A DNA stretch of 63,594 bases, filler included, from Collodictyon triciliatum (GCA_043381765.1; 5 parts of 5 records of this genome joined end to end with filler, not necessarily neighbours in it); one strand, 5' to 3'. Counted from the whole stretch's first letter, positions 15,377-61,353 are shown. Numbers and translations are program-made. The notes: a model not told the origin generated them from the sequence alone.

Positions 15377-15476
15377 NNNNNNNNNNNNNNNNNNNNNNNN
15401 NNNNNNNNNNNNNNNNNNNNTTAATTAATTAANNNNNNNNNNNNNNNNNNNNNNNNNNNNNNNNNNNNNNNNNNNN
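15377..15476. other. Artificial contig linker N44-TTAATTAATTAA-N44
   Basis: Exactly 100 bp. The 12-mer has stops in all six frames. Identical linkers at 34279, 53177 and 61254. Confidence 0.97.
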
Positions 15477-18405: not shown

Positions 18406-21400
18406 ATGTTTCGACAATTCAGAGCCAACACGGTCGATAACTCAGCTCGTCTCGAAGAGCTGCGAAAGCTTGCGGAAGATCCAGATATTGTCTCCCTTCA
18501 AAACCGGACCCATTTGTACCTTGGATCAAAGAATCTGACTTCTTTTCCACCAGCAGTTTTCATACTGACCCGTTTGTTGCAGTTATGGGTGAATAGCAAC
18601 CAGATATCGTTCCTTCCGCCAGACATTTCGCGATTGAGAGGTCTCAAGGTGCTTAGTGCTGACAGTAACAAACTTTCATCTCTTCCGCTAGAAATATCCC
18701 ATTTGACCAACTTGGTTTACCTTGGTGTTTGCGGAAACCAGGTGTCGTTTTTGCCTCTAGAGATATCCGTTCTGACAGGTCTCACTTATCTGGGCTGCGG
18801 AAGCAATCTCCTAGCGACACTAGAGCCGGAGATATCGTGTCTGACAAACTTAAAAGAGCTTGATATCAGTGTAAATAAATTATCGTGGCTTCCTTCCGGA
18901 ATATCCTGCTTGAAGTGCTTGGAATACCTCAGCGCCTATGAAAATCTATTTTCATACCTACCTACTGAGATGTCTGATTTGGAGTGTCTCAGAGAACTAG
19001 ACATTGGGTCCAATCAGCTGTCCTCTATCCCCGAGGGAATTCTGTGGTTAACCGGCCTAAATGAACTGCATATCGGAGGCAATCATCTTCCCTCCATTAG
19101 CCCGCAAATATCATGGCTGGCTGACTTAATTGTACTCGCAATCGACAGGAATCCGGTACAATTTTCTTTCAATACAAAGAATATCAATATAAATCCTTCA
19201 TTTCCCTAAAATTGTGAGATTCAAATTATCACAGAATTTAGAAAACACATACCTTTAATGATAAAACCAAACATAGATCGAAGAGCTCCCATCTGAAATC
19301 ACAGCTTTAAAAAATCTGAAGAGATTATACATCGAAGCCTCAGGCCAGATAAATATAAAGAGAGCTCCCTGCGGAATTACTAACCTCCCTTGCTGGGACA
19401 ACAAGGACAAACCTTCCACAGACATGACCATGAGTTTTGCGGAGGCTCTTCAAAAGCTTGAACTCTACGACCCCGTAAGCAATATTTTTACATTGTATTA
19501 AGTGATACTAATTTTTTTTTTTTATTCTTCCTTTCAATTTTGTGCAGGATGGTGGAGATGTTGGCATTAAGTGATACTAATAATAACGTGGTATAATTAG
19601 GGAACATCTGTTTTTGAAGAACAGGGAGGTTTCAAATCTGAGCAAGCCAGGAGAGCTGAAGAGGATGCTAAGGTTTTTTCAAACCCTCAAGGAATAACCT
19701 ATCGACTAGAAATTGAGACTATCAGATTGTGTAATTGCCATCTAATTAATATATAGCATCAGCCATTGTTTGTCCAAGCGATCAAGTCTGTCCACCCAGG
19801 TTACAATGACTCCAACCTTCACTCAATTCATGGACTGATGACTCCAAGTATACCCATTGATTGTGGTCTCAGGACTAACACCGATTTTATAGATAAATCG
19901 AGGGCGAACTACAGACCCTTCGCAAGCGGAGAAGTGTTTCAAGTAAAGTCTCGTCTGGCGTCAGGGTGAGATTTATCGGTGTTTTCTTTTTTCTTTCTTT
20001 TTGACGGAATCTAAGCTCATCTTCTGGGCTGTAGTGTGCTCGAGGTTGACGGTATCGTCGAAAACTTCTATGTGGATGAGAAAAATGTAAAGGAGCTCGA
20101 CAGAGGCAGCTGCGGGAACGTGTCGCTGTATGGTGAGAATAATTGTGTTGGAGCAATCTGTCACTGTTTTCTACTCCATTTTAATGGAATCTACAGTTTA
20201 TTTTTCTTCTATTTGTCTTTTTCTTTTCCTTTTTATTCATTTCTTCTCTTTTCTTCTCCTTTGAATTCAATCTTACACCTCATTATCCTACTCGCACTCG
20301 AAACTAGACCAACACAAGAGAAGGCTGAAACTCGCAAAAATCCAACAGCGCATCATCCACGCAAAGTCCATGGTCTCGCAAGTAAGTAACCCAACAGTTG
20401 TGTCCCCATCGACCATCTATCATGTATAACGGTATTAAACACACCACGAGCGTCACTTGACTCATCCCTGTGTCAAGATTTGTACGGACGGTCTGGACGA
20501 TGATGAATGCACGACTTACGACGAGCTGTACCACGGAAAGGAAGAAGAAAATGAGATCGCTGTCGAAGGCGGCCAAATACCCAGGGATAGTCAGCAGGTC
20601 GCCGACTTCTCAGAGATTGTATATTTCGTGAGCGAGGACTTTGTAAACAGCGCGGTGGAAAAAAAGGACTCTGCTGACATTACGGCCAAGCGCGTCAAAT
20701 TAGAAGTCGACGCTTGCCTCTCTGGTGCATTGTGCGCGCTCTGCTTCAATTTCTACACAGCGCCCCGCTCTCTTCCTTGCCAACACACTTTCTGCACTGC
20801 ATGTATCAAGACTGCCATCATCGACTCCAAGCAGGAGCCTCCCTTCAGCTGCCCGATGTGCCACGAGCACACATATATCGACGAAGACTCCTTGTGCGAC
20901 TTGGCTCCTCCCCAGTACGACACCGGAGCTTCGGAAGCGGCAAAGCAAAGTCTGGATGCAGATAAGAATGAACGCTCGACTTCTCGCCAAAAATGCCGAG
21001 CAAGAGGATGCTCAGAAGATGCAACGTCGTACTGTGAGAACTGTGGCGAAAAGGGTGTTTACTGCACAGAACACAGCAAAATGCACACCGTTGTATTGGA
21101 CGACCATGTCATCAAGTAAGTATCTCTTCATCACCAGCATAGAAGTGGATGGTGGGTGGATGGGATTTATTTTTCACATTTGATATGGGAAGTGTGGTTA
21201 CCCTATAAATATATGAACATTTCACAAGGCCTTTAGTATGGGGAGCAGTGCCGAGCCTGAAGAAGGTGGAGAACTGTGCATTGCACAAAGATATTCCAAT
21301 CGGATTCTTTTGTCCGTCATGCCCCGAGTCTCCTCTAAAGTGCGCGAAGTGTGTATATGATGACAAATTTCATGATGCATTCCACAAAGAACTGAAGCAG

Positions 21401-21690: not shown

Positions 21691-23174
21691 GATGTAGTTA
21701 TTATTCACTACAAACATCCTCATCCATTCTTTGTACAGGTCACTTGTTGCCACAAACAACAAACAGAAGAGTTGGACGAGTTTGTTAAAGAACTGGAGGC
21801 TCAGGTCAGGCGGTTCAAGATAGAATCCCGGGAGCAGGTACGCCCGAGAATAAATATTGAAGATGGTACAATGTCACACGGGCCCCTTGCTAGTGCCTTC
21901 CATCCTTTGTATGTGTGTATGTATGTTTTAATATTTTCCATAACGCAACAAAACAGCTCGAGGCCATGAACACATGTGTCCTCACCCCTCTGCAAGACCT
22001 TCAAAAGAAGCTGGAATGTGAGATGCACCGAATCCGCATCGCCAAGCGAAGCCTCGCCAAGCTGAAGAAGGATGCTGACGACCGATCGCTGATTCAGACA
22101 GGTAATGCGCTACGCTTTGCCAACCAAGTTCTCTATTCCAAGTACGATGCACCTGTGCCGATTGTGCCTCTCAAGATTATCTCAAGAGTCTCGGACTGCA
22201 TCCTGCATGACCTCAAGAGACTGAATGAGTCGTTCATGTATGGCTTGAGCTTCACAAACACAGGCAAGCCGCGCCAAAGGATAGAGCAATCATCTTCAGT
22301 CGAGCTGTTTTATGAGATTGGCATTCCGCCATCACAAATCCCACCGACGCCCACAGCAAGCGCAGATTCTCTGACAGCAAATATAACGATTGAGTGTCCG
22401 TGGGCTGTTTGTGTGCACCCACAGAACGGTAGTGTATATGTCACAGACGAAGACATGCAAACCGTGCTCATCTTCGACACAAACCTCAGACACATATCAT
22501 CGCACCACACCGGACTTAGTGTCCCAAAGTCGCTGCACGGCCCAAGAGGAATCGCTATCTCGGGCGATGGACTGATAGCCATAGCAGACTGCGAAGGTCA
22601 CTGTGTAAAACTCTTCACAGATGAGCTCACACTGGTCAAGACTATCGGTGGGAAGAAAGGCACGGGGAGCGGACAGTTCCACCGGCCATACTCGGTTGCG
22701 TTCGACAGCGAAGGGAGCTTCTATGTGGCCGACTCTGGGAACCAACGAGTCCAGAAGTTCAACAAGAAAGGCGACTTTGTCTGCATCGTGGAGGTTGGAA
22801 ATGAAGGTGACAGCCCCGCCAAGCCGCTCGTCAACGGTGTGTGCGTCAACGAAGAGGATGAGCTTTTGGTTTTGTGTGCCGGGTCCGACAGAGTTCGTGT
22901 GTTCTCCAAGGACAGAGGATTCGAAGGAAGTGTCAAGCTGAAGACTGCAACGAGTGTGGAAGGCTGGTCGCACATATTCCGGGCCTCTCGAGGCATCTTT
23001 GGTGTTTGCGACAACAAAAGCGGAGCGATAACCTTCTACGACTACAAAAGCGTAGTTCATCATCGTGCTGTCGTGCAGGGCTGCCTGGGGGCGTGCTTTG
23101 GACGTGATGGGACTTTCTACACGACGAGCCTTTCGCAAAAATCAGTGTCTGCCTTTTCCACAGGGCATGAATAA
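18406..23174 (+). CDS. Single gene: LRR array - uncharacterised linker domain - RING - B-box - B-box - coiled coil - NHL beta-propeller (LRR-fused TRIM-NHL-like E3 ligase)
   Basis: LRR exon 18406-19155 splices in phase 0 to 19277-19474 (IEELPSEITALKNLKRLYIE...DMTMSFAEALQ). Further GT-AG exons lead in frame to RING CALC...LPCQHTFCTACI...CPMC, B-boxes (CRARGC...CENC...YCTEHSKMH; CALHKD...CPSC...CAKC...H), a coiled coil, and NHL repeats (LHGPRGIAIS, FHRPYSVAFDSEGSFYVADSGNQRVQKF). Confidence 0.8.
19497..19581 (-). mobile_element. Short retro-insertion, family B (53-bp insert 19513-19565), with perfect 16-bp TSD, in intron
   Basis: attaagtgatactaat flanks both sides. The insert reads gccaacatctccaccatcctgcacaaaattgaaaggaagaat(A)n on the minus strand. 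The same 3' end recurs at 25908-25939. Confidence 0.82.
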
Positions 23175-34278: not shown

Positions 34279-34378
34279 NNNNNNNNNNNNNNNNNNNNNN
34301 NNNNNNNNNNNNNNNNNNNNNNTTAATTAATTAANNNNNNNNNNNNNNNNNNNNNNNNNNNNNNNNNNNNNNNNNNNN
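34279..34378. other. Artificial contig linker N44-TTAATTAATTAA-N44
   Basis: Same 100-bp linker. Confidence 0.97.
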
Positions 34379-51017: not shown

Positions 51018-52649
51018 TCAAGAGTAATACATAATAGCCCACGTCATGGAGAGAATACAATTAATTGACCAGATGAATAAGAGCACCTTGTTCATAGGTT
51101 TCCATGCCTCAAAGTCACTTTTTCTGATATTTCCTTTTCTTATTTCGTAAGATAGGGTGGCGATGTCAGAGATAATTTCAAATGAAAACTGAATGATTAT
51201 TTGATAAAAGCATTCACGAAACGACTTAATCGGAAGTATCTTGGATTTTTTTGCTAAGGGGTAGGCAAAATACATGAGTAAGGGTGCAAATATAATGGAA
51301 TATACTTCTGAAACAATCCCATCGTAAAGATATTGCGCTCGAAATATCAAAGCTTCATCAATAAACTCTTTCTCTTGATTACCAATCGACTGACTTTCTG
51401 GCTTGCTCTCATCTTCACTGCTTTGGTTCCTCTGCGTACCTCCAGTGGGGGTTATAGGTTTTAGTTTTCTTGATTTGCATGAACGCATAAACCTCGCAAT
51501 TATTACACTCATTACAGACTGGCTTATAAATACCAACTTCATCCGAAGCTTAAATGTTACCGTCAAAAGCAGCTCAATCAAAGCCGCCACAAAGTTGACC
51601 AAAATGAATTCATACGATATTGCGCCATCCGTGGATAAATTCGAGACTAAGACTCGCCCTAGCAATTGAATGTAGTGATTACATAATTTATTTGCTATCA
51701 ATCTCTTGTCCATATGCTCTCTAGATAAATTGTAAATTAGCCTAATTTGAATCCAGTTGGATAGATTGAAACATATCGGGAACACTATAAACCGAAATAT
51801 CAGCTGAGTAAATAAAGACGACTCCAAGTACAAATTCAAGATATTTCGAAAGAAAAAAACAACAAGAATGTAAAACGCCAATAGTCCTTTCAACATGCCA
51901 GAAGCAGATCCGTCTTTAGTCAACTTGTAAAGCTCCTCTTGCTTTTTTGTAGCTTTTTCTGGTTTTTTCGACTTGAATATTAGAAATAACCCAACTCCAA
52001 TCCAAAAGAATTGATTAAACCGTATGACATTCACAAAAGCCGTGTTATCTTTGAGCCATAGATTAAGCGAACTATCTAGTACGTATCCTGGAATCAAAGC
52101 ATAGATAAATGAGTTCTTTGACTGGTGGAAGCCAAATATCTCAACTGCAGCTAATCCTATAGAAGCCCAGAATGTGGGTGACCATGTAAACTCTTGCATT
52201 TTTTCGTATAAAACATTCTTTATTATTTCAAGTACCCTGGGTGATAAAACGACTGCAGGCAAGAAATAAATCCATATAAAGAATAGATTTGCCGAAAGGG
52301 TTGGTGCTATCATCAGTACAGTTTTGAAACAAATTATATATGCTTCCTTACATGATAAACTCCATGATATTTGATCGCTTGTGGAAGGTTCTATTTCCTC
52401 TGGCAAGAATGCATTTTCATGGAAGATCTCATCTGCTCTGTCCATATCTACGCATTGCAGCTCTACTCCGATGCTTTCATTAGTTGGTTTACTGAAACAA
52501 TCAAGTTCTGTGCTCTGCGATTGGCTGACTTGGTACTCGTTTAGTCTGTTGGTCGGTTGCTTTTTGTTGCATGATTCGTTATCCTGGACCAGATGAAGTG
52601 GATCAAAGGGAATTTCGTTGTCCTTAGACGCCTCTATATCCTCTTTCAT
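51018..52649 (-). CDS. Intronless 543-aa polytopic membrane protein of unknown function
   Basis: Long uninterrupted ORF with an acidic N-terminus and about 10 hydrophobic segments; no family motif recognised. Confidence 0.75.
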   Translation of the reverse strand: MKEDIEASKDNEIPFDPLHLVQDNESCNKKQPTNRLNEYQVSQSQSTELDCFSKPTNESIGVELQCVDMDRADEIFHENAFLPEEIEPSTSDQISWSLSCKEAYIICFKTVLMIAPTLSANLFFIWIYFLPAVVLSPRVLEIIKNVLYEKMQEFTWSPTFWASIGLAAVEIFGFHQSKNSFIYALIPGYVLDSSLNLWLKDNTAFVNVIRFNQFFWIGVGLFLIFKSKKPEKATKKQEELYKLTKDGSASGMLKGLLAFYILVVFFFRNILNLYLESSLFTQLIFRFIVFPICFNLSNWIQIRLIYNLSREHMDKRLIANKLCNHYIQLLGRVLVSNLSTDGAISYEFILVNFVAALIELLLTVTFKLRMKLVFISQSVMSVIIARFMRSCKSRKLKPITPTGGTQRNQSSEDESKPESQSIGNQEKEFIDEALIFRAQYLYDGIVSEVYSIIFAPLLMYFAYPLAKKSKILPIKSFRECFYQIIIQFSFEIISDIATLSYEIRKGNIRKSDFEAWKPMNKVLLFIWSINCILSMTWAIMYYS

Positions 52650-53176
52650 GACTAAGGGACAATTTCAAGTGGTTAAGACGAAACAAAACTTTAAGTTTCA
52701 GATATTTTCTTTACGTTTGTGTGGAAAGTTTCATTGTTTTTGTTTTGGCTTTATGGCTTATTGTTTTTTTGGATTTTTGGCTTTTTGGCTTTTTGGCTTT
52801 TTGGCTTTGGGCGCCCAACTCATTTTATTTTCTTCGTAGAATATCCTTGGGGCACCATCCAACTAGCGCGTTCCCATATTCCCAAACCACATCGACATAA
52901 ACCTGCCTTGTCGATTTTTGTGACAATCAGGAAATTAAAGGTGAGCAAACGAAATTATGTCGGGGTTTTGGTGAAATGCGCGTATCCCCAAAGCTACGGA
53001 AAGAACTGTGAAATTTTAAATGAAAAGGTAGATAAGCAAACAGGTTCTACTTCGATATGCTGACGACACAGCATTCATCTTGCGGTCTCCCGAAGGCGCC
53101 ACACTCGCCAACAAATGCATGCAAGAATACACACGAGCTGTCGGCGGGAAAATCAACTATGACAAGACAGATGGAA

Positions 53177-53276
53177 NNNNNNNNNNNNNNNNNNNNNNNN
53201 NNNNNNNNNNNNNNNNNNNNTTAATTAATTAANNNNNNNNNNNNNNNNNNNNNNNNNNNNNNNNNNNNNNNNNNNN
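53177..53276. other. Artificial contig linker N44-TTAATTAATTAA-N44
   Basis: Same 100-bp linker. Confidence 0.97.
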
Positions 53277-56200
53277 AATTGTGACAAACAGCTGACCGAA
53301 TTACCAGCTCTATTATCTGCGATGACGTCAATCCACTTTCTAGACATCTCCATGAACCAGGCAACTTAAATTACACTTATTCGTTTCATTTATCAGAGTT
53401 ATGTTTTACATTCATGTTTAGATTATATCAATAACCCCTTTATTTTTTAAGATAACCGAATATCCTGATTGGCTCGGCAACATGATTCAAATTAGATCGC
53501 TCAATATCTCTCAATGCCAGGTATTTTTGATTAACTTATCACTCATCAAACTATTACGCGATTAACCTCTTGATTAGCTGTAACTAACCCGCACTGCAGC
53601 TTTCCAAGGTTCCAGAGCCAATTGCAAGACTCGAAAATCTCAAAAATCTGGATATATCCCACAACCTAGTTAGTGATTTTTTCATTCATGCATTCAATAT
53701 ATAATACAAAATAATTATATATAACATATGAAATGACAAAGATTAATAAATTAAAAACACATTATTTAAAAAAACCATCAATGCTCGTTTATCTTTATAT
53801 ACCTATTGAACACATACTTTTACTGAAGTAAAAAGTATCATTAATCATATGTATTTTTGCATGTAGATTGAAGTATTGCCACCTTTCTTGGGTAAAATTC
53901 CGACCTTGAGAAGTGGGCTCAAAATCGGTGGAAACCCAATCAAGAACGTGCCCCAGAACGTCCTTCAACGAGGCTCTGAGGACACGTTTGACTATCTTTT
54001 GGCATTACTTGAGGGCAAAACTTTGAATATTGAGGGGCGAATTCTATTACTCGGTGAGGGCGAGGCTGGAAAAACCACGCTGCGAGAATCATTGAAACAG
54101 GACAACCCCAAGGGTTTCAAATCAACTGTAGATGCCAACCGAAACAGAACAGATGGGATCGAGATTGAGAAAGGTTCCATTATCCTCAACTACCTAGAGC
54201 AGAATATCCATGCAAATATTTGGGACTTTGGCGGCCAGGACATATTCCACGCGACTCATTCGTTCTTTTTATCTGGAAATGCTCTTACGCTTATCGTGTA
54301 CAATATGAATGAACAACCCTTCCTTTCGAGTGTTTCACAGTGGCTTAATATGATTTCATATTTCTGCTCTGGGGCAAAAGTGATAATTGTGGGAACTCAC
54401 TTGGACAAATTCCAAACGAAGGAAGAATGTCACGATGCGACAGAGAAATGTAATGAGGAATACCAGAAACTGAAAGCTCTAGATTACTACAAGGGTAAAA
54501 TTGAGTTTTGTGGACATTTTACGACAAGCAATCAAACTGGAGCCAATATTTTTGAATTGAAAAGGGAGATTCATACTCAGCTTCTGGAACTTCCAAACGT
54601 TGGAAAATTCATTCCAAAACAATATAATGACCTAAAAGAAACCCTTGCGGATTGGAAAAAACAACAACACCTCTCAGTGTCCATAAAAAAAGATGTTTAT
54701 CCCGCGGCTACAGAATTAGGAATTAATCCTGCATCTACAGAGTCGGCACTTCGCTTCCTTGCAGACATGGGGATCGTTGTTTGGAGCGAAAAGAGTGAAA
54801 ACATACGCGATACAGTGTTTCTCAACCCAGAGATACTCATTTCTTGTTTTCGTGGAGTTTTCAATCTCAAAAGCAGCAGAACTTCTGATTCTCAAGCAGA
54901 AACCGACCCGAACGAAATCAGAGGTATATTTGAGGAAAGGACGCTCCAAGAAACACTAGATAAGACCATTCGGTCACAGTTGAAATCTATTTTACCATCT
55001 CTGATACCAAAGTTCACAAAACGAATAATGAAGCTCTTTTGTGATTACAAGCTCGCCTATTATATTGGAAAGTCCAAGATTATATTCCCCATTCTCGTGC
55101 GCGATGAAGAACCTCCCGATACTTGGATTGCCGATTTTTCTAGTGTCAAGGAGGCTGTTCATTATTTAATTGAATATCGTAGTGAAATTCCTAAAAATGA
55201 CATTAGTCATATAATTGGTGACATTGTGGCAAAGCTTAATATCACGTCTGGTACTTTGCCACAATGCTTGTTTCTGAGTAAGCAGCGGTTAATATTTCCA
55301 TTTTCGTTGACTCGTGTCGACGATTACAGACTAGTGATGAAGGAGAACAATTACAGTAATGATTTTACTGCCTTCATCCACTTTTTGCCTATGCACGAGC
55401 GTCAGGTACGACTCTTTGCCTATATTGTGAAAATATTCCATCAATTTTTTAACTTGTATTTTCTTAGCAAAATACTTAACAGTTCGAATTTTCTTTAGGA
55501 AAATGGGCAACCAAAATACATCAGGTTGCCGAGTACCCAAAAGATTATCGTCATAGTGAAAACTACGAAAGAAAACTGTTGCACGATTGATTCCACCAAC
55601 TACATTGTCAATCAATTAATAAAATCCAAAGTTGGGATGGATGTCAAGTTGGAAGGCGTAATGTGCCCAAAATGCATCGAAAAGTTTCAAAGTGGCAAGG
55701 GAATTAGAGAGCATGTCTCATTACTGATGCCCAAATATACAACGACAGTTGAATCTGGAGTATTGTTGACCCTAGGCACAGACAATGCATCTCCTAATCG
55801 CGAATTTCATTCTCATCTGGGTGGATGGAGTCCATTTCATCTCAGTGCCAAATGCAGTTTCGGTGCACATGAAATTAAGCAAGCTGAATATATGAGACTT
55901 AAGCTTCCCAGTAGCGCTTTGCGTCTCAATTATTCTGGGACAGTGCTCGAGCAGAGAGGAATAATTGGTATCGAAAACAGGGAGATATACATTTTCCTCT
56001 CGTCAACTTTTCAGGATATGATAGAGCTTCGAGAGAGCTTCGTTAGATATGCTAAGCCAAGGTAAGCCTTAAAACAATCCATCCAACAAAGTATTGCCCT
56101 ACTCATAAACACAGACCTGACGTACCGAATCAAAACTAGAATAATAACTGATGCTGAGAAGCTCGGTGTTCGTGTTAGATTCATCGATTTAAGATGGGGT

Positions 56201-59149
56201 GTTTCGATTGAAGAATCGGAAAATGGAAAAGTAATATTGTTGCCTACACAAATTCGCTAAATATTATTAACAAAACAACCCTTACTATGACTTAAGTTTT
56301 ATCCGTGCTTACTCATCAACAAAAATTGTTTCACAGACGATGCAAAAATGTCTTGAAGGTGTAAGAGACTCAAAATATTTTGTTTGCTTCTTGGGTTCCA
56401 GGTTAAAAGATGATGGTTTTAGATCTCATTTTTATAATTGTAACGGTTTTGGGTACGCTCTTATTGTATACTAAATTTCATCTGCAGGTATGGATGGATT
56501 CCAAGTAGAAACGATTCAAAACAATGGAACAGAAAAATAGAGACTGATTTTCCGTGGGTGAAGGCTTATTCAGAGGCCAGCGCTACAGAGCTGGAAGTAT
56601 GCAAGAAAGATACTTGCTTTGCTTATTTTTACTTAAAAAAAAAGTGTTGCAACACGATTCTTTTTTTAAAACAACAATCAAAAACCTGAAGATTCGAGCT
56701 GCTGGCTTCATAGAACAGCCCTACGCCCATCGCATATTCTTTTACCAGAAAACAGGAGTAATTTCCTCTTTTTGGAGCCAACTTTTCTATGATATTCACA
56801 TCATCAATATTTTGCGATATTCAATTAAGTCCAAATTTATCTATTTCCTTTCCAAACTATTGCACTGATGGGTAAATATATTTATACGTAACAAGGGAGA
56901 AAACTCGGACCAACCGGATAGCCAGAAGCAACAAAAATTGATTTCTAGCATCGAAGCCCGTTATCCAGTATTTAAGTTTGGCGTTGAGGAAGTCCATAAA
57001 CTCATCCAAACAACCAAAACCCACTTGATCAACGCCTTGCGAGAAGACTTTAGGGTATATTTTTTCGTTTTATCATTGTAATTTAGTTAATATGGTATGG
57101 ATGCCATTTTGTCACCCATATTTTTTAATATGCCATTCATCTAATCAGGGACCAAGTCCGCGCAATTTTGCAACTTGCATCGAGCAGGTTGATTTTATTT
57201 ATTGATTGTTGATTGATTTAGGAAAAATTTTCTGATAACACTCCCTGTCCAAACAAATATCTCGTAAATAAGATTGGATATCAAACTTTGGAACCTGAGG
57301 CTGTGGTGGCGCGCATAGAGTCCTGTTGTGAAATGTATTCCAAAAAATTATCTGAAGAACAAAACCGAATATTGAAAGATGGAATTCAGGAAAATTCGTC
57401 ATTACGTAATCCACTATCTCGAATAATTGCAACTAATAATATTACTCGTTTTTTTTAAAAAAAAAATCGTAATTTCTAATTAATATTTGAATTGCTTTAG
57501 GCAAACCCAACATGCTGCGTCTGGCTTTATCAGAGCTCATTGATTTCGGTGCGTTTGAAAAGCTGGGTTTCTTACTTCGAGATATAACATCACGAGCGAA
57601 TTTAGGAGATGAAAAGCTACTGGAATTCATAGTAGGCAACTACGAAGATCATTATGGTACGCTTTACAAGATTATTCCCTACGTTACAAAACGCCGCATA
57701 AATTCAATTTTACTATAATCATTCTTAATTGACATGCCACTAATTCAACGCAGGGCCGCTCGTTAAGCAAACTTTCAGAAATTTATTGGTTACAAAGATT
57801 GGTCTTTGTCTCGACTCTCACAAACAAGTCCAGCCGGGGAGAAGTCAGCAAGAATCCAGCAATTCAAAATGGTGATTAAATTATTCTTTTAAACGCAAAG
57901 AGATATTGCAGATAATCTGGATATTGTCATGCCATCTTATTTTGAAATTTGGGCACGCATTTTTCAAAAGAAAACTATTATGTTTACAAATAAATAACAG
58001 TGATGCACTTGTCGCTATATTGGAACATTTTGGATTTATTCAGTTGAAGGATGAAAGGTTTTACTATTCATTCTCATTTATTATAATCCGATTTATTATG
58101 AATAGATGTTGCGTAATTAAAAATCTACTCTGATTCACAATTTTAACTATTAGATACGTTTTTACGAATGACGGGATTCTGCGCCCATTTTTAGAAAAAA
58201 AGTATCTCGGTTCAAAACCGCAATCATATGGGGCCTGGCAAGATTACATCGACCTACTGATGTATGAGATAAAATCATGCCCAAACATTGGAGAAATAGG
58301 CACCAAACTTGTTAATGAATTGCTTCGCAGCTACGAGAAACTGTTTCTTAATGCAGAGGATTATCTGGATGGCCAGCAGAATAAATTTATAGGATTCTTG
58401 GGTGAACCGAACGTCGTCATCGTATTAAAATGTACTGCAAACGGTATAGTCCAACGTATTCACCAGAATCCAGATGCATTCAAGTTTGAGAGTAGTGAAG
58501 AATTATGGAAGGCGGCCATAATGGTAGGGTTTGCATAAGTAAAAAAAAAGTGGTAAAATAGTATTTTTAACGTCCTTAACATTAAATATGCTCAGAAATC
58601 AAAACATGCAGCCGCCTATTTACCAATGTATTTGGAGAGTGAAATAAGTTTAAGGAAAATGCTGTATGATTGTCTCATCGAAAAGACAAACGAACTCTAT
58701 GCCCCAAGCATGCAAGACTCAGGTTTGTTATTTTCTCTCCACTAGTGAGGTATTTACTCAATAAACTCCCACTTTCTTGAAGACAATAGGGTGTCAAACG
58801 CACGCTAGTGATGTTTAGTATGTTTTAAAAAAAATTAATGCGCCATAGGTGATATTGACTTACTGGATAAGACATACACTTGCCTTCGTTCTTTAGCTTC
58901 TAAACTTGAACTGTAATATTTCGACTGTTGTTACGCAATATTCACACATCAATGTTGATATTAGTTGAATAAAAGTAAGCTAGTTTTTACAAGAATTTGT
59001 ATTTTAGCTTAATCTTTCTCCTTTCTCTTTTAAGGTCAACCGAAATAAAGCAATTTGAGCAGAAAATCAAAGAATTAAAGGAGCAATCACTTCAACTGCG
59101 ATTAAAGGAGCACGGAATCTTGACTCCTGAGAACACAAGTAAAGACTAG
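53277..59149 (+). CDS. Roco protein: LRR - Roc GTPase - COR - DUF4062-like domain - NPHP3-like helical region; 5' truncated
   Basis: LRR exons; G1 GEGEAGKTT, G2 RTDGIEI, G3 WDFGGQ, G4 VGTHLD; COR ALRFLADMGIVV...VFLNPEIL; then IYIFLSSTFQDMIELR, FIDLRWGV, YFVCFLGSR-YGWIP, SATELE; stop at 59147-59149. Confidence 0.88.
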
Positions 59150-59846
59150 TTCGAAACTTGTCCCCTTTGGAATCCTTCCTATTCCTCCAAAAGGTGAATC
59201 CCTTCTTATCACCACATTACTACCTAACTTTTTTTTTTTTATAAAAAGACAATAATATTTAATTTCTTCTTTATATTAAGAATGAATTGAATAACACAGC
59301 AAACAAATTATATAAAAGATGGAGGCATACAATCATATGTATATGCCTAAATTGGAAGCTGAGTTACACTTTATTGTTTTTTTCTTTGTTTGTACTGGTG
59401 GTCGCGATAACGATTAATCTTTAAAATATGTGCGTTGTTCACTGATTTTAACGTATCAAATATAAATATTAAGTGACGTGAGAAGAAGAGGAAACGAATC
59501 ATTCTTCCAACGATGTACCAAGTGAGCATAAAAGTATGGCTATGACAAAATAGCCTCCATCAGATGTTAGGCTCAGCCTTGCAGAAATAACGTCCAAAGC
59601 TTATTCGTTCAATTTTAAGAAAATACATCCAAATCACCCTTATCACAATTTCAATACTTTTTTCTACCTCAATCATTCATTTTTCAGGGGTTTTCAGCAT
59701 TTGCTTTTTCCCGTCCATAAAAATCTACAAACATATACCTTTTTTTTTGCTTTTACCACTTAAAGCATACATCGAGCACAGAATAAAGATAATAATAATA
59801 ATAAAAATAAAAATAAAAAACAGTTGAACACTTCATTCCTTTTATT

Positions 59847-60503
59847 TTGGCAAAAGCTGGCAAAGTCTCCCAACGATGCACACTTTGCAGCAACGGTGAT
59901 GAATCCATTGAGCACACATTTGTGCAATGTCCCTCCGCTCAAAACCTGCGCGAAACAGCCGGTGAGATTCTCCGACTAACACTCAAGACGGCTGCGGCTG
60001 TTGACCCAATCCAGGCGATATTTGGGCCTCTGCAACAGCTGCGTCCAGATGCGAAAACATTCTGGGCAGTGACGCGAGGCCATTTGGTATGGACTATGTG
60101 GATAGCACGCATATACTCACGCAAAGCAAGATTCAACAACCAGCCACCCATTCCTGATAATAGGCTGAATGACATCATACAAATCTCTTTCCTCAATAGC
60201 TTTCTTCGCCACCTGCACGTTCTCTACTACTCCGACCCCGTGAGAAGAGACATGTGGAAAGAGGCTGAGAAGGACATTAAACCTCGCCTTGTATCTCTCA
60301 TGCAAGCGCAAGACCCAGGCTACAGGCCAAACCGCAGGATGCAATTCCTGATAACCGACTACTTCTCCGCCACCCGGCCACCAAGTAGCGTCCGTGCAAA
60401 CGATGATTAGGTGGCATATTCTGCACCATCGTCTTTATTGACGCGGAAAGAACATCATCTATTAATCGCGTGTTAGTCATCACAAAGCAACGCCCTTGAC
60501 AGG
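59847..60503 (+). mobile_element. 5'-truncated L1/Tx1-like LINE fragment (ORF2 C-terminal CCHC zinc finger, zf-RVT) plus 3' UTR
   Basis: CTLCSNGDESIEHTFVQCP followed by W...LVWTMWIAR...FNN, typical of L1-clade ORF2 C-termini. Intronless and GC-richer than its flanks. Possible 9-bp TSD ttattttgg at 59842 and 60504 (weak). Confidence 0.82.
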
Positions 60504-60769
60504 TTATTTTGGGAACAAAACAGCGTTTGGGGCTGTAAATGCGTTTGGAGTGCGAACCGTTTTCAGAGATGGGATTTCTTCTGGTGTCAGAAACGGTGAA
60601 TATAAAGTGAAAACCAAAACGCATATTCTCACAACAGTCGCATGAAGGAATCATGTTCGCGAAGACAGTAAGCCATCAACAGACGAAGCGAGAAGGGCAC
60701 GGCACTCTGGAAGCAAAATGTAGCAGGGATTGACAAGAACAAAATTATGAAACCAACCGCAGGACGAGC

Positions 60770-61151
60770 ATGAACGTAAGGATCGCTTTTGTTGCCGTGG
60801 TGATGTTGTTCGCCCTGGCAAACGCCCAGACACAGCCGATCAAGCATGTTGTTGTTCTGATGCAGGAGAACAGGTCTGTCGGTCATCACTTTTCTTTGCC
60901 CACTACTATACTTTAGCCCCCGCTTTATTGCGTCCTGGTGCCCACGTCTCTTAAGGTCGTGCATGTGCCAAACAAGACGACTCACATGAAAAGCAGGAGC
61001 TGAACCCTGGCGACTAACCAGAGCTTTACTGCGTAGGAGCTTTGACCATATGATGGGCTTCTTCAATCGCCTCAATCCTGAGATAAACGGCCTGCGAGGT
61101 GGCGAGTCCAACCTGGTCGACCTTGCTGATCCTGCCTCACCCTACGTCACG
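60770..61151 (+). CDS. Phosphoesterase-family (non-specific phospholipase C / AcpA-like) secreted enzyme; first two exons only
   Basis: Signal peptide [19 protein letters not shown], then [20 protein letters not shown]...INGL.G.ESN; truncated by linker. Confidence 0.9.
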
Positions 61152-61160
61152 GTTTGGCTG

Positions 61161-61198
<38 letters not shown>

Positions 61199-61253
61199 CC
61201 CCAAACAATTTAAAAACTCTTTAAAAAAAAAATTCATTAACCCAGTAGTATTT

Positions 61254-61353
61254 NNNNNNNNNNNNNNNNNNNNNNNNNNNNNNNNNNNNNNNNNNNNTTA
61301 ATTAATTAANNNNNNNNNNNNNNNNNNNNNNNNNNNNNNNNNNNNNNNNNNNN
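61254..61353. other. Artificial contig linker N44-TTAATTAATTAA-N44
   Basis: Same 100-bp linker. Confidence 0.97.

Follow-up and report, generated by a model that had tools for sequence, protein, structure and literature searches.

In eukaryotes, the DUF4062 domain, which was shown to be an NAD+-cleaving enzyme (NADase) only in 2026, has been described almost exclusively beside a STAND ATPase. The locus considered here raises the question of how such a domain could be controlled when it stands behind a Roco GTPase and the ATPase is gone. It occupies positions 53277–59149 of a stretch of 63,594 nucleotides, filler included, from Collodictyon triciliatum (GCA_043381765.1); this whole stretch, at its full length, is referred to below as the window. 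The gene encodes a Roco protein, with leucine-rich repeats (LRRs), a Roc GTPase domain and a COR domain, that is at the same time a DUF4062 protein, and it contains no STAND nucleoside triphosphatase (NTPase). It is a real, expressed, intron-rich eukaryotic gene of a small Roco family, which places DUF4062 behind the Roco GTPase and has one branch without the ATPase. The closest relatives are five transcript families of Diphylleia rotans, four of which keep a NACHT-like core of about 185 residues, while one (P0002) lacks it. This architecture is far more certain than the mechanism that can be proposed for it.

The window consists of five separate scaffolds joined by four linkers of the form N44-TTAATTAATTAA-N44 (15377–15476, 34279–34378, 53177–53276 and 61254–61353). 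As these scaffolds were merely joined, neighbourhood across the linker points has no meaning. The gene lies on the scaffold 53277–61253, which is 7,977 bp long. A G+C content of about 35–40%, many short introns and retroelement fragments on either side give the sequence a eukaryotic character. The retroelement fragments that flank this scaffold are a reverse-transcriptase-like frame with a YADD motif (53032–53176, + strand), which extends to the very end of its scaffold, and a zf-RVT match (1.2e-05; 59817–60410, + strand), and they probably explain the assembly break at this point.

The gene model was derived from stop-to-stop frames and the sequence, followed by homology to full-length relatives. 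It comprises 18 exons on the + strand with a spliced length of 4,005 nt, corresponding to 1,334 codons. The spliced frame holds a single stop, the terminal one, and is unbroken across 17 introns of 72–198 nt, 16 of which have GT–AG ends and one of which, intron 1, has GC–AG ends. Position 53277, at which the interval given in an earlier reading of this DNA made from the sequence alone begins, is not the start of the gene. It is the first base after a linker, and exon 1 is open there; consequently, the gene is truncated at its 5' end and its N-terminus is missing. The encoded order is LRR, Roc, COR, a Cys/His motif, DUF4062 (also called NIR), a 22-residue linker, a post-ATPase helical domain of the NPHP3 type and a helical tail. 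These parts are distributed over the following features, where X1 and X3 denote contigs from public sequencing runs and P numbers denote related proteins.

53177–53276, no strand: scaffold-joining linker N44-TTAATTAATTAA-N44, placed from the N runs and linker positions.
53277–53360, + strand: exon 1, LRR, open at the scaffold edge, with a GC donor (gene model; X1/X3 contigs join 53360 to 53600, GC..AG).
53452–53520, + strand: exon 2, LRR (gene model, AG/GT sites; skipped in the X1/X3 contig).
53600–53668, + strand: exon 3, LRR (gene model).
53867–55405, + strand: exon 4, with the last LRR, Roc (about 54038–54406), COR-A (about 54614–55096) and the start of a COR-B-like part (Pfam, AlphaFold2 model, structural alignment).
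55499–56061, + strand: exon 5, with the remaining COR-B-like part, the Cys/His motif and the start of DUF4062/NIR at about 55973, FLSSTFQDM (gene model, alignment with P0001–P0003).
56140–56230, + strand: exon 6, NIR, FIDLRWG (gene model, alignment, profile).
56337–56401, + strand: exon 7, NIR, FVCFLGSR (gene model, alignment, profile; weak lone-exon Pfam DUF4062 match of 16.7 bits).
56488–56596, + strand: exon 8, NIR, YGWIP...SATELE (alignment with P0002 and TEP1).
56692–56757, + strand: exon 9, NIR, IRAAGF...FFYQKTG (gene model, alignment, profile).
56896–57054, + strand: exon 10, helical C-terminal end of the NIR region, ending in LREDFR (gene model, alignment).
57055–57221, + strand: intron 10, 167 nt, GT..AG, the site of the STAND ATPase core of about 185 residues in relatives (alignment gap, flanking stops).
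57222–57405, + strand: exon 11, with the 22-residue linker (57222–57287) and, from 57288, the start of the post-ATPase helical domain, LEPEAVV...YSKKLSEEQ (gene model, alignment, profile).
57501–57656, + strand: exon 12, helical domain, KPNMLRLALSELIDFG (gene model, alignment, profile; donor seen in the X1 spliced contig).
57754–57871, + strand: exon 13 (both splice joints in the X1 contig).
58001–58057, + strand: exon 14 (both splice joints in the X1 contig).
58154–58523, + strand: exon 15, C-terminal helical region (both splice joints in the X1 contig; aligns to P0001–P0003).
58596–58722, + strand: exon 16 (splice joints in X1; downstream joint in X3).
58849–58912, + strand: exon 17 (splice joints in X1 and X3).
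59035–59149, + strand: exon 18, with the stop TAG at 59147–59149; its end aligns with the C-terminus of P0002 (gene model, alignment, contigs).

The STAND ATPase core is absent from the gene. The protein has a single match to the pattern G....GK[ST], and so do the six frames of the scaffold taken together, namely in Roc at 54053. Searching the whole window by tblastn with the ATPase-core segments of P0001 and P0003 gave a best E of 0.11, and no AAA or NACHT match was obtained with Pfam in the window exons. The statement of the sequence-only reading that neither Walker A nor Walker B lies between DUF4062 and the helical part is thereby upheld. In the alignment to relatives, the window protein shows a gap of about 185 residues, opposite approximately 1455–1640 of P0003 and 1345–1530 of P0001. 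In these two proteins the gapped stretch holds a Walker A motif (GKPGIGKS and GDAGIGKT, respectively), a strand reading LLVDGIDK or IFIDDVDK, and a strand reading IIVTAAEK or ILTTAGK. At the corresponding place in the DNA, the frame of exon 10 stops at 57079–57081 and that of exon 11 opens behind a stop at 57219–57221. These stops bound the 167-nt gap and leave no space for an exon with a P-loop, so that the absence of the core is a property of this DNA and not the result of missed exons. The reading frame is kept over the exon 10/11 junction. Three tiny exons had earlier been supposed between LREDFR and YSKKL; the interval instead consists of a single intron (57055–57221) followed by exon 11 (57222–57405). 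One candidate for a Walker B remnant in the linker (NKYLV opposite IYLLVD) appeared in one alignment and was rejected, as a second alignment placed the linker elsewhere.

Behind the gap, alignment to the relatives restarts at LEPEAVV and runs on to the C-terminus, and the C-terminal 370 residues align in all of them. To identify this segment, a profile was built from the family sequence strictly behind the gap. It scored 39.8, 32.0, 30.7 and 22.2 bits on four of seven canonical DUF4062-NACHT(-TPR) proteins (P0285, P0286, P0128 and P0127), in each case directly behind NACHT, and 7.1, −0.1 and −2.2 bits on the other three, with reversed controls at or below −0.1. The match in P0286 (387–547) overlaps the Pfam match to NPHP3_hel in that protein (403–515). 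Pfam did not detect NPHP3_hel in the window exons, and exons 11, 12, 15 and 16, run singly, matched no family at E up to 0.1. On the strength of the profile, the segment after the gap is identified as the helical domain that trails the ATPase core in NPHP3-like proteins, in agreement with the resemblance noticed earlier.

Relatives were sought with exon 4 by a word-indexed search and by an exhaustive HMMER search over 1.84 billion representatives, and both agree. The exhaustive search returned 8,247 Roco relatives (E up to 0.001), of which just five exceed 260 bits: P0001, P0002, P0003, P0133 and the fragment P0132. P0137 follows at 144 bits. P0132 is a 254-residue NCBI fragment, 54% identical, which ends where exon 4 ends; the other five are Trinity transcripts of Diphylleia rotans (EukProt). 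Pfam was run on 13 of the 150 listed relatives, and DUF4062-bearing Roco proteins of lower rank are possible. The sequence-only reading had suggested looking for the Roc-COR-DUF4062 architecture in other genomes, and it is these five transcript families in which it was found. Pfam and motif scans together show LRR-Roc-COR-DUF4062 plus a second Walker A in four of the families: GDAGIGKT in P0001, GKPGIGKS in P0003, GDAGTGKS in P0133 and GEAGIGKS in P0283/P0137. In P0001, Pfam does not detect DUF4062, and the evidence for this region comes from alignment and a TExE-type motif alone. Unlike the window gene, these core-bearing paralogues carry Pfam AAA_16/NPHP3_N; all their other domains follow in the same order as in the window protein and can be aligned with it to the C-terminus. 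The Roco and DUF4062 parts had been considered as possibly separate genes. The frame unbroken over 17 introns and the full-length relatives with the same domain order establish them as one.

The fifth family, P0002 (TRINITY_DN1672, EukProt EP00002), has the domain order of the window gene: LRR, Roc, COR, Cys/His motif, DUF4062, a short linker, helical domain and helical tail. It has no second Walker A in any of its four isoforms, which are identical in sequence across the junction, and it lacks the same ATPase-core segment as the window gene. The two proteins are 36% identical over 1,164 aligned columns, and their linker peptides, of 18 residues in P0002 and 22 in the window protein, are unrelated. 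P0002 has about 970 residues of LRRs before Roc, the part that the truncated window gene cannot show.

A maximum-likelihood tree was computed for 10 proteins, i.e., the window model, the five family members and four LRR-Roc-COR-PH outgroups, over 1,515 columns, from which the ATPase-core columns were excluded by the fill rule. The tree unites the window gene with P0002 (support 100/98) and groups the four core-bearing genes together (93/94). The tree program flagged the amino-acid make-up of the window protein as unusual and left P0002 unflagged. As the end branches are about one change per column, the core-less form must have been maintained for a long time. Since four of the five Diphylleia genes carry both switches and the window gene groups with the core-less one, the core was lost secondarily. 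The simplest reading of these sequences would be a single loss before the window and P0002 lineages split. This is where the earlier interpretation has to be revised: the gene had been viewed as a chimera with Roc-COR substituted for the ATPase, and loss from an ancestor with two switches takes the place of that view. A word-indexed search with residues 1600–2181 of P0002 returned seven other proteins, five of near length and two shorter, all with NACHT/AAA, and therefore no core-less DUF4062 protein was found outside this Roco family.

Two further observations concern the family. In P0137/P0283, GKRLSGKS replaces GEGxVGKT in the Roc P-loop and Pfam matches Roc weakly (8.8e-07), while the STAND Walker A is intact; here, in reverse of the window gene, it may be the GTPase switch that is degenerating. 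Elsewhere in the window, at 18406–19483 (+ strand), LRR open reading frames match Pfam LRR_14 (7.7e-24) and, by tblastn, the LRRs of P0002/P0003 (best E 2e-17), with no Roc behind them. They may belong to a further member of the family or to an independent LRR gene.

The identity of the Roco module is carried by exon 4, which encodes 513 residues. Pfam detects Roc (7.1e-20; 71.9 bits vs. a cut-off of 27), with the P-loop GEGEAGKT at 54053, and COR-A directly behind it (3.7e-10; 40.3 bits vs. a cut-off of 35.3). The window protein keeps the residues whose conservation across 108 Roco proteins is 90% or more, namely G63, G68, K69, T95, W119, D120, F121, G123 and Q124, of which D120, G123 and Q124 match the DxxGQ motif. 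An AlphaFold2 model of exon 4, based on an alignment of 108 Roco proteins, reached a mean predicted local distance difference test (pLDDT) score of 85.4 and a predicted template modelling score of 0.86. Structural alignment with VIA-align placed model residues 51–482 on residues 1329–1745 of LRRK2 (8fo9_A) with a Z of 31.6 and a root-mean-square deviation of 3.9 over 382 residues. The corresponding Z values are 30.9 for LRRK1 (8e05_A) and 24.3 for the Roco protein of Chlorobium tepidum (8r4d_A; model 50–512 on chain 447–851). Between COR and DUF4062, exon 5 encodes a Cys/His motif, formed by CPKC (55664–55675) and, after about 60 residues, C....H (55853–55870). It is conserved in all six family members, and the consensus of the 108 Roco proteins, most of them bacterial, shows a C..C...C pattern at the same place. 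The motif possibly forms a zinc site where COR-B ends.

The DUF4062 domain follows. All motifs quoted in the sequence-only reading were recovered in a single spliced frame of the + strand. Exon 5 carries FLSSTFQDM and exon 6 DLRWG, LGSRYGWIP crosses from exon 7 into exon 8, exon 8 closes with SATELE at 56596 and exon 10 with LREDFR at 57054, and YSKKLSEEQ and KPNMLRLALSELIDFG are found in exons 11 and 12, respectively. On a profile of five DUF4062-NACHT proteins from outside the family, the spliced sequence of the domain reaches 109 bits, with a reversed control of −0.7. Because the domain is split over six exons (5–10), lone exons remain below the Pfam DUF4062 cut-off (15.0 and 16.7 bits vs. 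24.7). In the sister protein P0002, Pfam gives 38.8 bits for DUF4062, and the TEP1 structure chain 11gz_A is matched at 1.7e-13. A single-sequence AlphaFold2 run on the C-terminal 582 residues of P0002 gave a mean pLDDT of 37.4 and no usable fold for the region from NIR to the tail.

Three preprints of 2026 bear on the function of this domain. In one of them (bioRxiv 10.64898/2026.05.01.722283), Osinski et al. identify DUF4062 as a TIR-like NADase; human TEP1 cleaves NAD+ and NADP+ and requires E1008, replacement of R908 by Ala lowers the activity, and the isolated TEP1 domain has a higher specific activity at higher concentrations. The domain was renamed NIR and shown to be the effector of Avs proteins by Le Mouellic et al. 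(bioRxiv 10.64898/2026.09.04.749371), who describe most eukaryotic NIR proteins as NLR-like (NLR, NOD-like receptor) with NIR at the N-terminus. The catalytic Glu of the NIR proteins named in these preprints is E1008 in TEP1, E108 in PsAvs2 and E97 in KpSwz. The sequence-only reading had called the domain a putative effector. Its function is no longer open, as DUF4062 domains are NADases in these preprints.

In the window protein, the second Glu of SATELE (56594–56596) aligns with TEP1 E1008 and would be the catalytic residue. The position of E1008 at the second Glu of T-E-x-E was fixed by matching R908, R954 and R976 to the Arg residues of 11gz_A via P0002. The equivalent of TEP1 R976 is kept in the window gene (GSRYG). 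Across the Diphylleia genes, the E1008-aligned Glu is present in five of five and the R976-aligned Arg in four of five. The NIR domain of the window protein is predicted to have NADase activity.

Support for splicing comes from contigs X1 and X3, drawn from public runs none of which is on record as RNA, the kind of contig being guessed. The X1 contig (1,265 nt) is spliced exactly at introns 12–17, with the joints 57656/57754, 57871/58001, 58057/58154, 58523/58596, 58722/58849 and 58912/59035, and the X3 contig shows the last two of these. Another X1/X3 contig (53290–53668) joins exon 1 to exon 3 with GC..AG ends, skips exon 2, and carries seven differences in exon 3. Past that exon it no longer resembles the window, which suggests that related organisms have a paralogue or an alternative isoform.

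How could such a protein be switched on? The ancestral protein would have held a pair of nucleotide switches on a single chain, namely Roc-COR and, behind NIR, a NACHT-like STAND ATPase. In the lineage leading to the window gene and P0002, the ATPase core, from Walker A to sensor (about 185 residues), would have been removed once and the rest kept. TIR-type NADases, including DUF4062, are switched on by proximity, and in NIR-NACHT proteins the STAND ATPase does the gathering. In the core-less gene, Roc-COR is the sole remaining nucleotide switch and assembly module; in other Roco proteins it alternates between dimer and monomer with GDP and GTP. A signal would be received by the LRRs and/or the C-terminal helical region, Roc-COR would then alter the oligomeric state, the NIR domains would meet, and the gathered NIR domains would hydrolyse NAD+ as an immune or cell-death output. 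Two published observations bear on this scheme: a bacterial Roco protein undergoes a monomer–dimer transition during GTP turnover (PMC5714945), and in prokaryotic conflict systems the central position can be held by Roc-type GTPases with COR instead of STAND NTPases, which is the less common arrangement (PMC7159879). Control of the DUF4062 domain by Roc-COR is plausible, and a Roc-COR-gated NADase with a presumed role in immunity or cell death is, on balance, the probable reading.

A broader interpretation is that this is a natural exchange of switches, in which a two-switch receptor discarded its ATPase in one lineage and kept the rest over a long divergence, in a distant protist and in the window organism. 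This interpretation is put forward tentatively, as a possibility that falls short of probable. If true, it would mean that a Roc-COR GTPase alone can gate a TIR-like NADase in eukaryotes, and that the leftover STAND helical domain has gained an ATP-independent role.

Several points weigh against a Roc-COR-gated NADase. The N-terminus of the gene is missing. At E up to 0.1, Pfam did not detect COR-B in either exon 4 or exon 5, and structurally only the first part of COR-B is seen: the exon 4 model reaches LRRK2 1745–1757 and C. tepidum Roco 851, positions that would lie inside COR-B. The proposal to confirm exons 56936–57657 by transcripts is borne out for the exon 12 donor, which the X1 contig shows, and not for the exon 10/11 junction, which is without transcript coverage, as no read or contig of runs X1–X3 lies on 55122–57376. 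The X1 contig differs at about 28 of 778 letters (about 96% identity) and therefore derives from another strain, a near-relative species or a close paralogue. Over exons 13–18, 21 differences between X1 and the window are listed, 8 synonymous and 13 non-synonymous. The ratio of non-synonymous to synonymous differences per site (pN/pS) of about 0.42 that follows from these 21 differences (174 synonymous and 675 non-synonymous sites) is a weak sign of constraint. Within NIR, the equivalent of TEP1 R908 is Gln in the window protein (STFQDM) and Leu in P0002. The human DUF4062 carriers NWD1, NWD2 and NPHP3 showed no NADase activity in vitro as full-length proteins, according to the TEP1 preprint (bioRxiv 10.64898/2026.05.01.722283). 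Finally, core-bearing paralogues in the window organism might exist as working partners, the window being the extent of the search.

In the first alternative, the core-less protein is a regulator or partner and no autonomous enzyme switch. Without the oligomerising ATPase, it would bind to core-bearing paralogues by way of NIR, the helical parts or COR and serve as a decoy, brake or sensor subunit of a mixed complex. Diphylleia rotans, the only other organism found with the family, expresses four core-bearing genes beside the core-less one, and the X1/X3 contigs that share exons 1 and 3 and are then unlike the window point to paralogues. The helical domain that is retained packs, in STAND proteins, against the ATPase core. 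However, no core-bearing paralogue of the window organism was seen in the window, and the aligned catalytic Glu and the Roc G-motif residues, for which a pure decoy would have no need, are kept. This alternative is regarded as unlikely.

In a second alternative, NIR has lost its ability to hydrolyse NAD+; the gene would then encode a scaffold or signalling GTPase of the Roco type that uses DUF4062 and the helical tail purely as interaction modules. The inactivity of the three human full-length proteins and the Gln at the R908-equivalent position speak for it. This position, however, is also not Arg in the consensus of the five canonical DUF4062-NACHT proteins, and the E1008-aligned Glu and R976-aligned Arg are both kept in the window gene and in five and four, respectively, of the five Diphylleia genes. 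Such a silent scaffold must be considered distinctly improbable. That the missing core is an artefact of assembly collapse, or the mark of a recently dead copy, is hardly credible: the scaffold of 7,977 bp starts inside the gene among retroelement fragments and the junction lacks transcript coverage, but 1,334 stop-free codons, 17 introns with standard ends and the frame kept across the junction, six introns seen in spliced contigs, and a sister gene in another organism without the same segment all speak against it.

The window protein can also be placed among known systems. TEP1, NWD1, NWD2, NPHP3 and bacterial Avs2, whose effector is NIR, share with the window protein a DUF4062 domain with the aligned, putatively catalytic Glu and an NPHP3-type helical domain. 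In these NLR-like NIR-NACHT proteins, DUF4062 stands beside a working STAND ATPase without Roc-COR, whereas in the window protein NIR stands behind a Roco module and the ATPase is gone. LRRK2, LRRK1 and the C. tepidum Roco protein have the same LRR-Roc-COR fold as the window protein, and P0002 matches LRRK2 in sequence at 1.6e-24. Unlike the window protein, none of them carries DUF4062: the output of LRRK1 and LRRK2 is a kinase, and C. tepidum Roco has none. The logic of the core-less form recurs in bacterial LRR-Roc-COR-TIR proteins (for example P0136 and P0147), in which a Roco module is fused directly to a domain of the TIR superfamily without a STAND ATPase. They differ in that the C-terminal domain is a classical TIR_2/TIR and not DUF4062, and in that no STAND remnant is present.

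The known outputs of Roco proteins (kinase, TIR and death domains) are also widened by an NAD+-cleaving type of domain common to bacterial antiphage systems and human TEP1. The family also offers a tractable test of whether a Roc-COR switch can drive a TIR-type enzyme, and of the role of the helical part of NLRs without an ATPase. The main texts of the three 2026 DUF4062 preprints, including the Evangelion preprint, contain no Roc or GTPase, and no Roco in the two where this term was searched; their supplements may list Diphylleia proteins. Among the titles listed for Roco or Roc-COR with NACHT, none concerns this fusion, and the combination of Roco, TIR domain and NADase gave no match.

Other features of the window stand apart from this gene. 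At 51018–52664 (− strand), there is an intronless open frame of 548 codons that has no Pfam match at E up to 0.01 and looks rich in hydrophobic stretches. Two open reading frames on one scaffold, a RING finger frame (20439–21119, + strand) and an NHL-repeat frame (21894–23174, + strand), form a TRIM-NHL-like arrangement. Their nearest Atlas clusters are animal, mostly Mollusca, with scores of 0.91–0.93.

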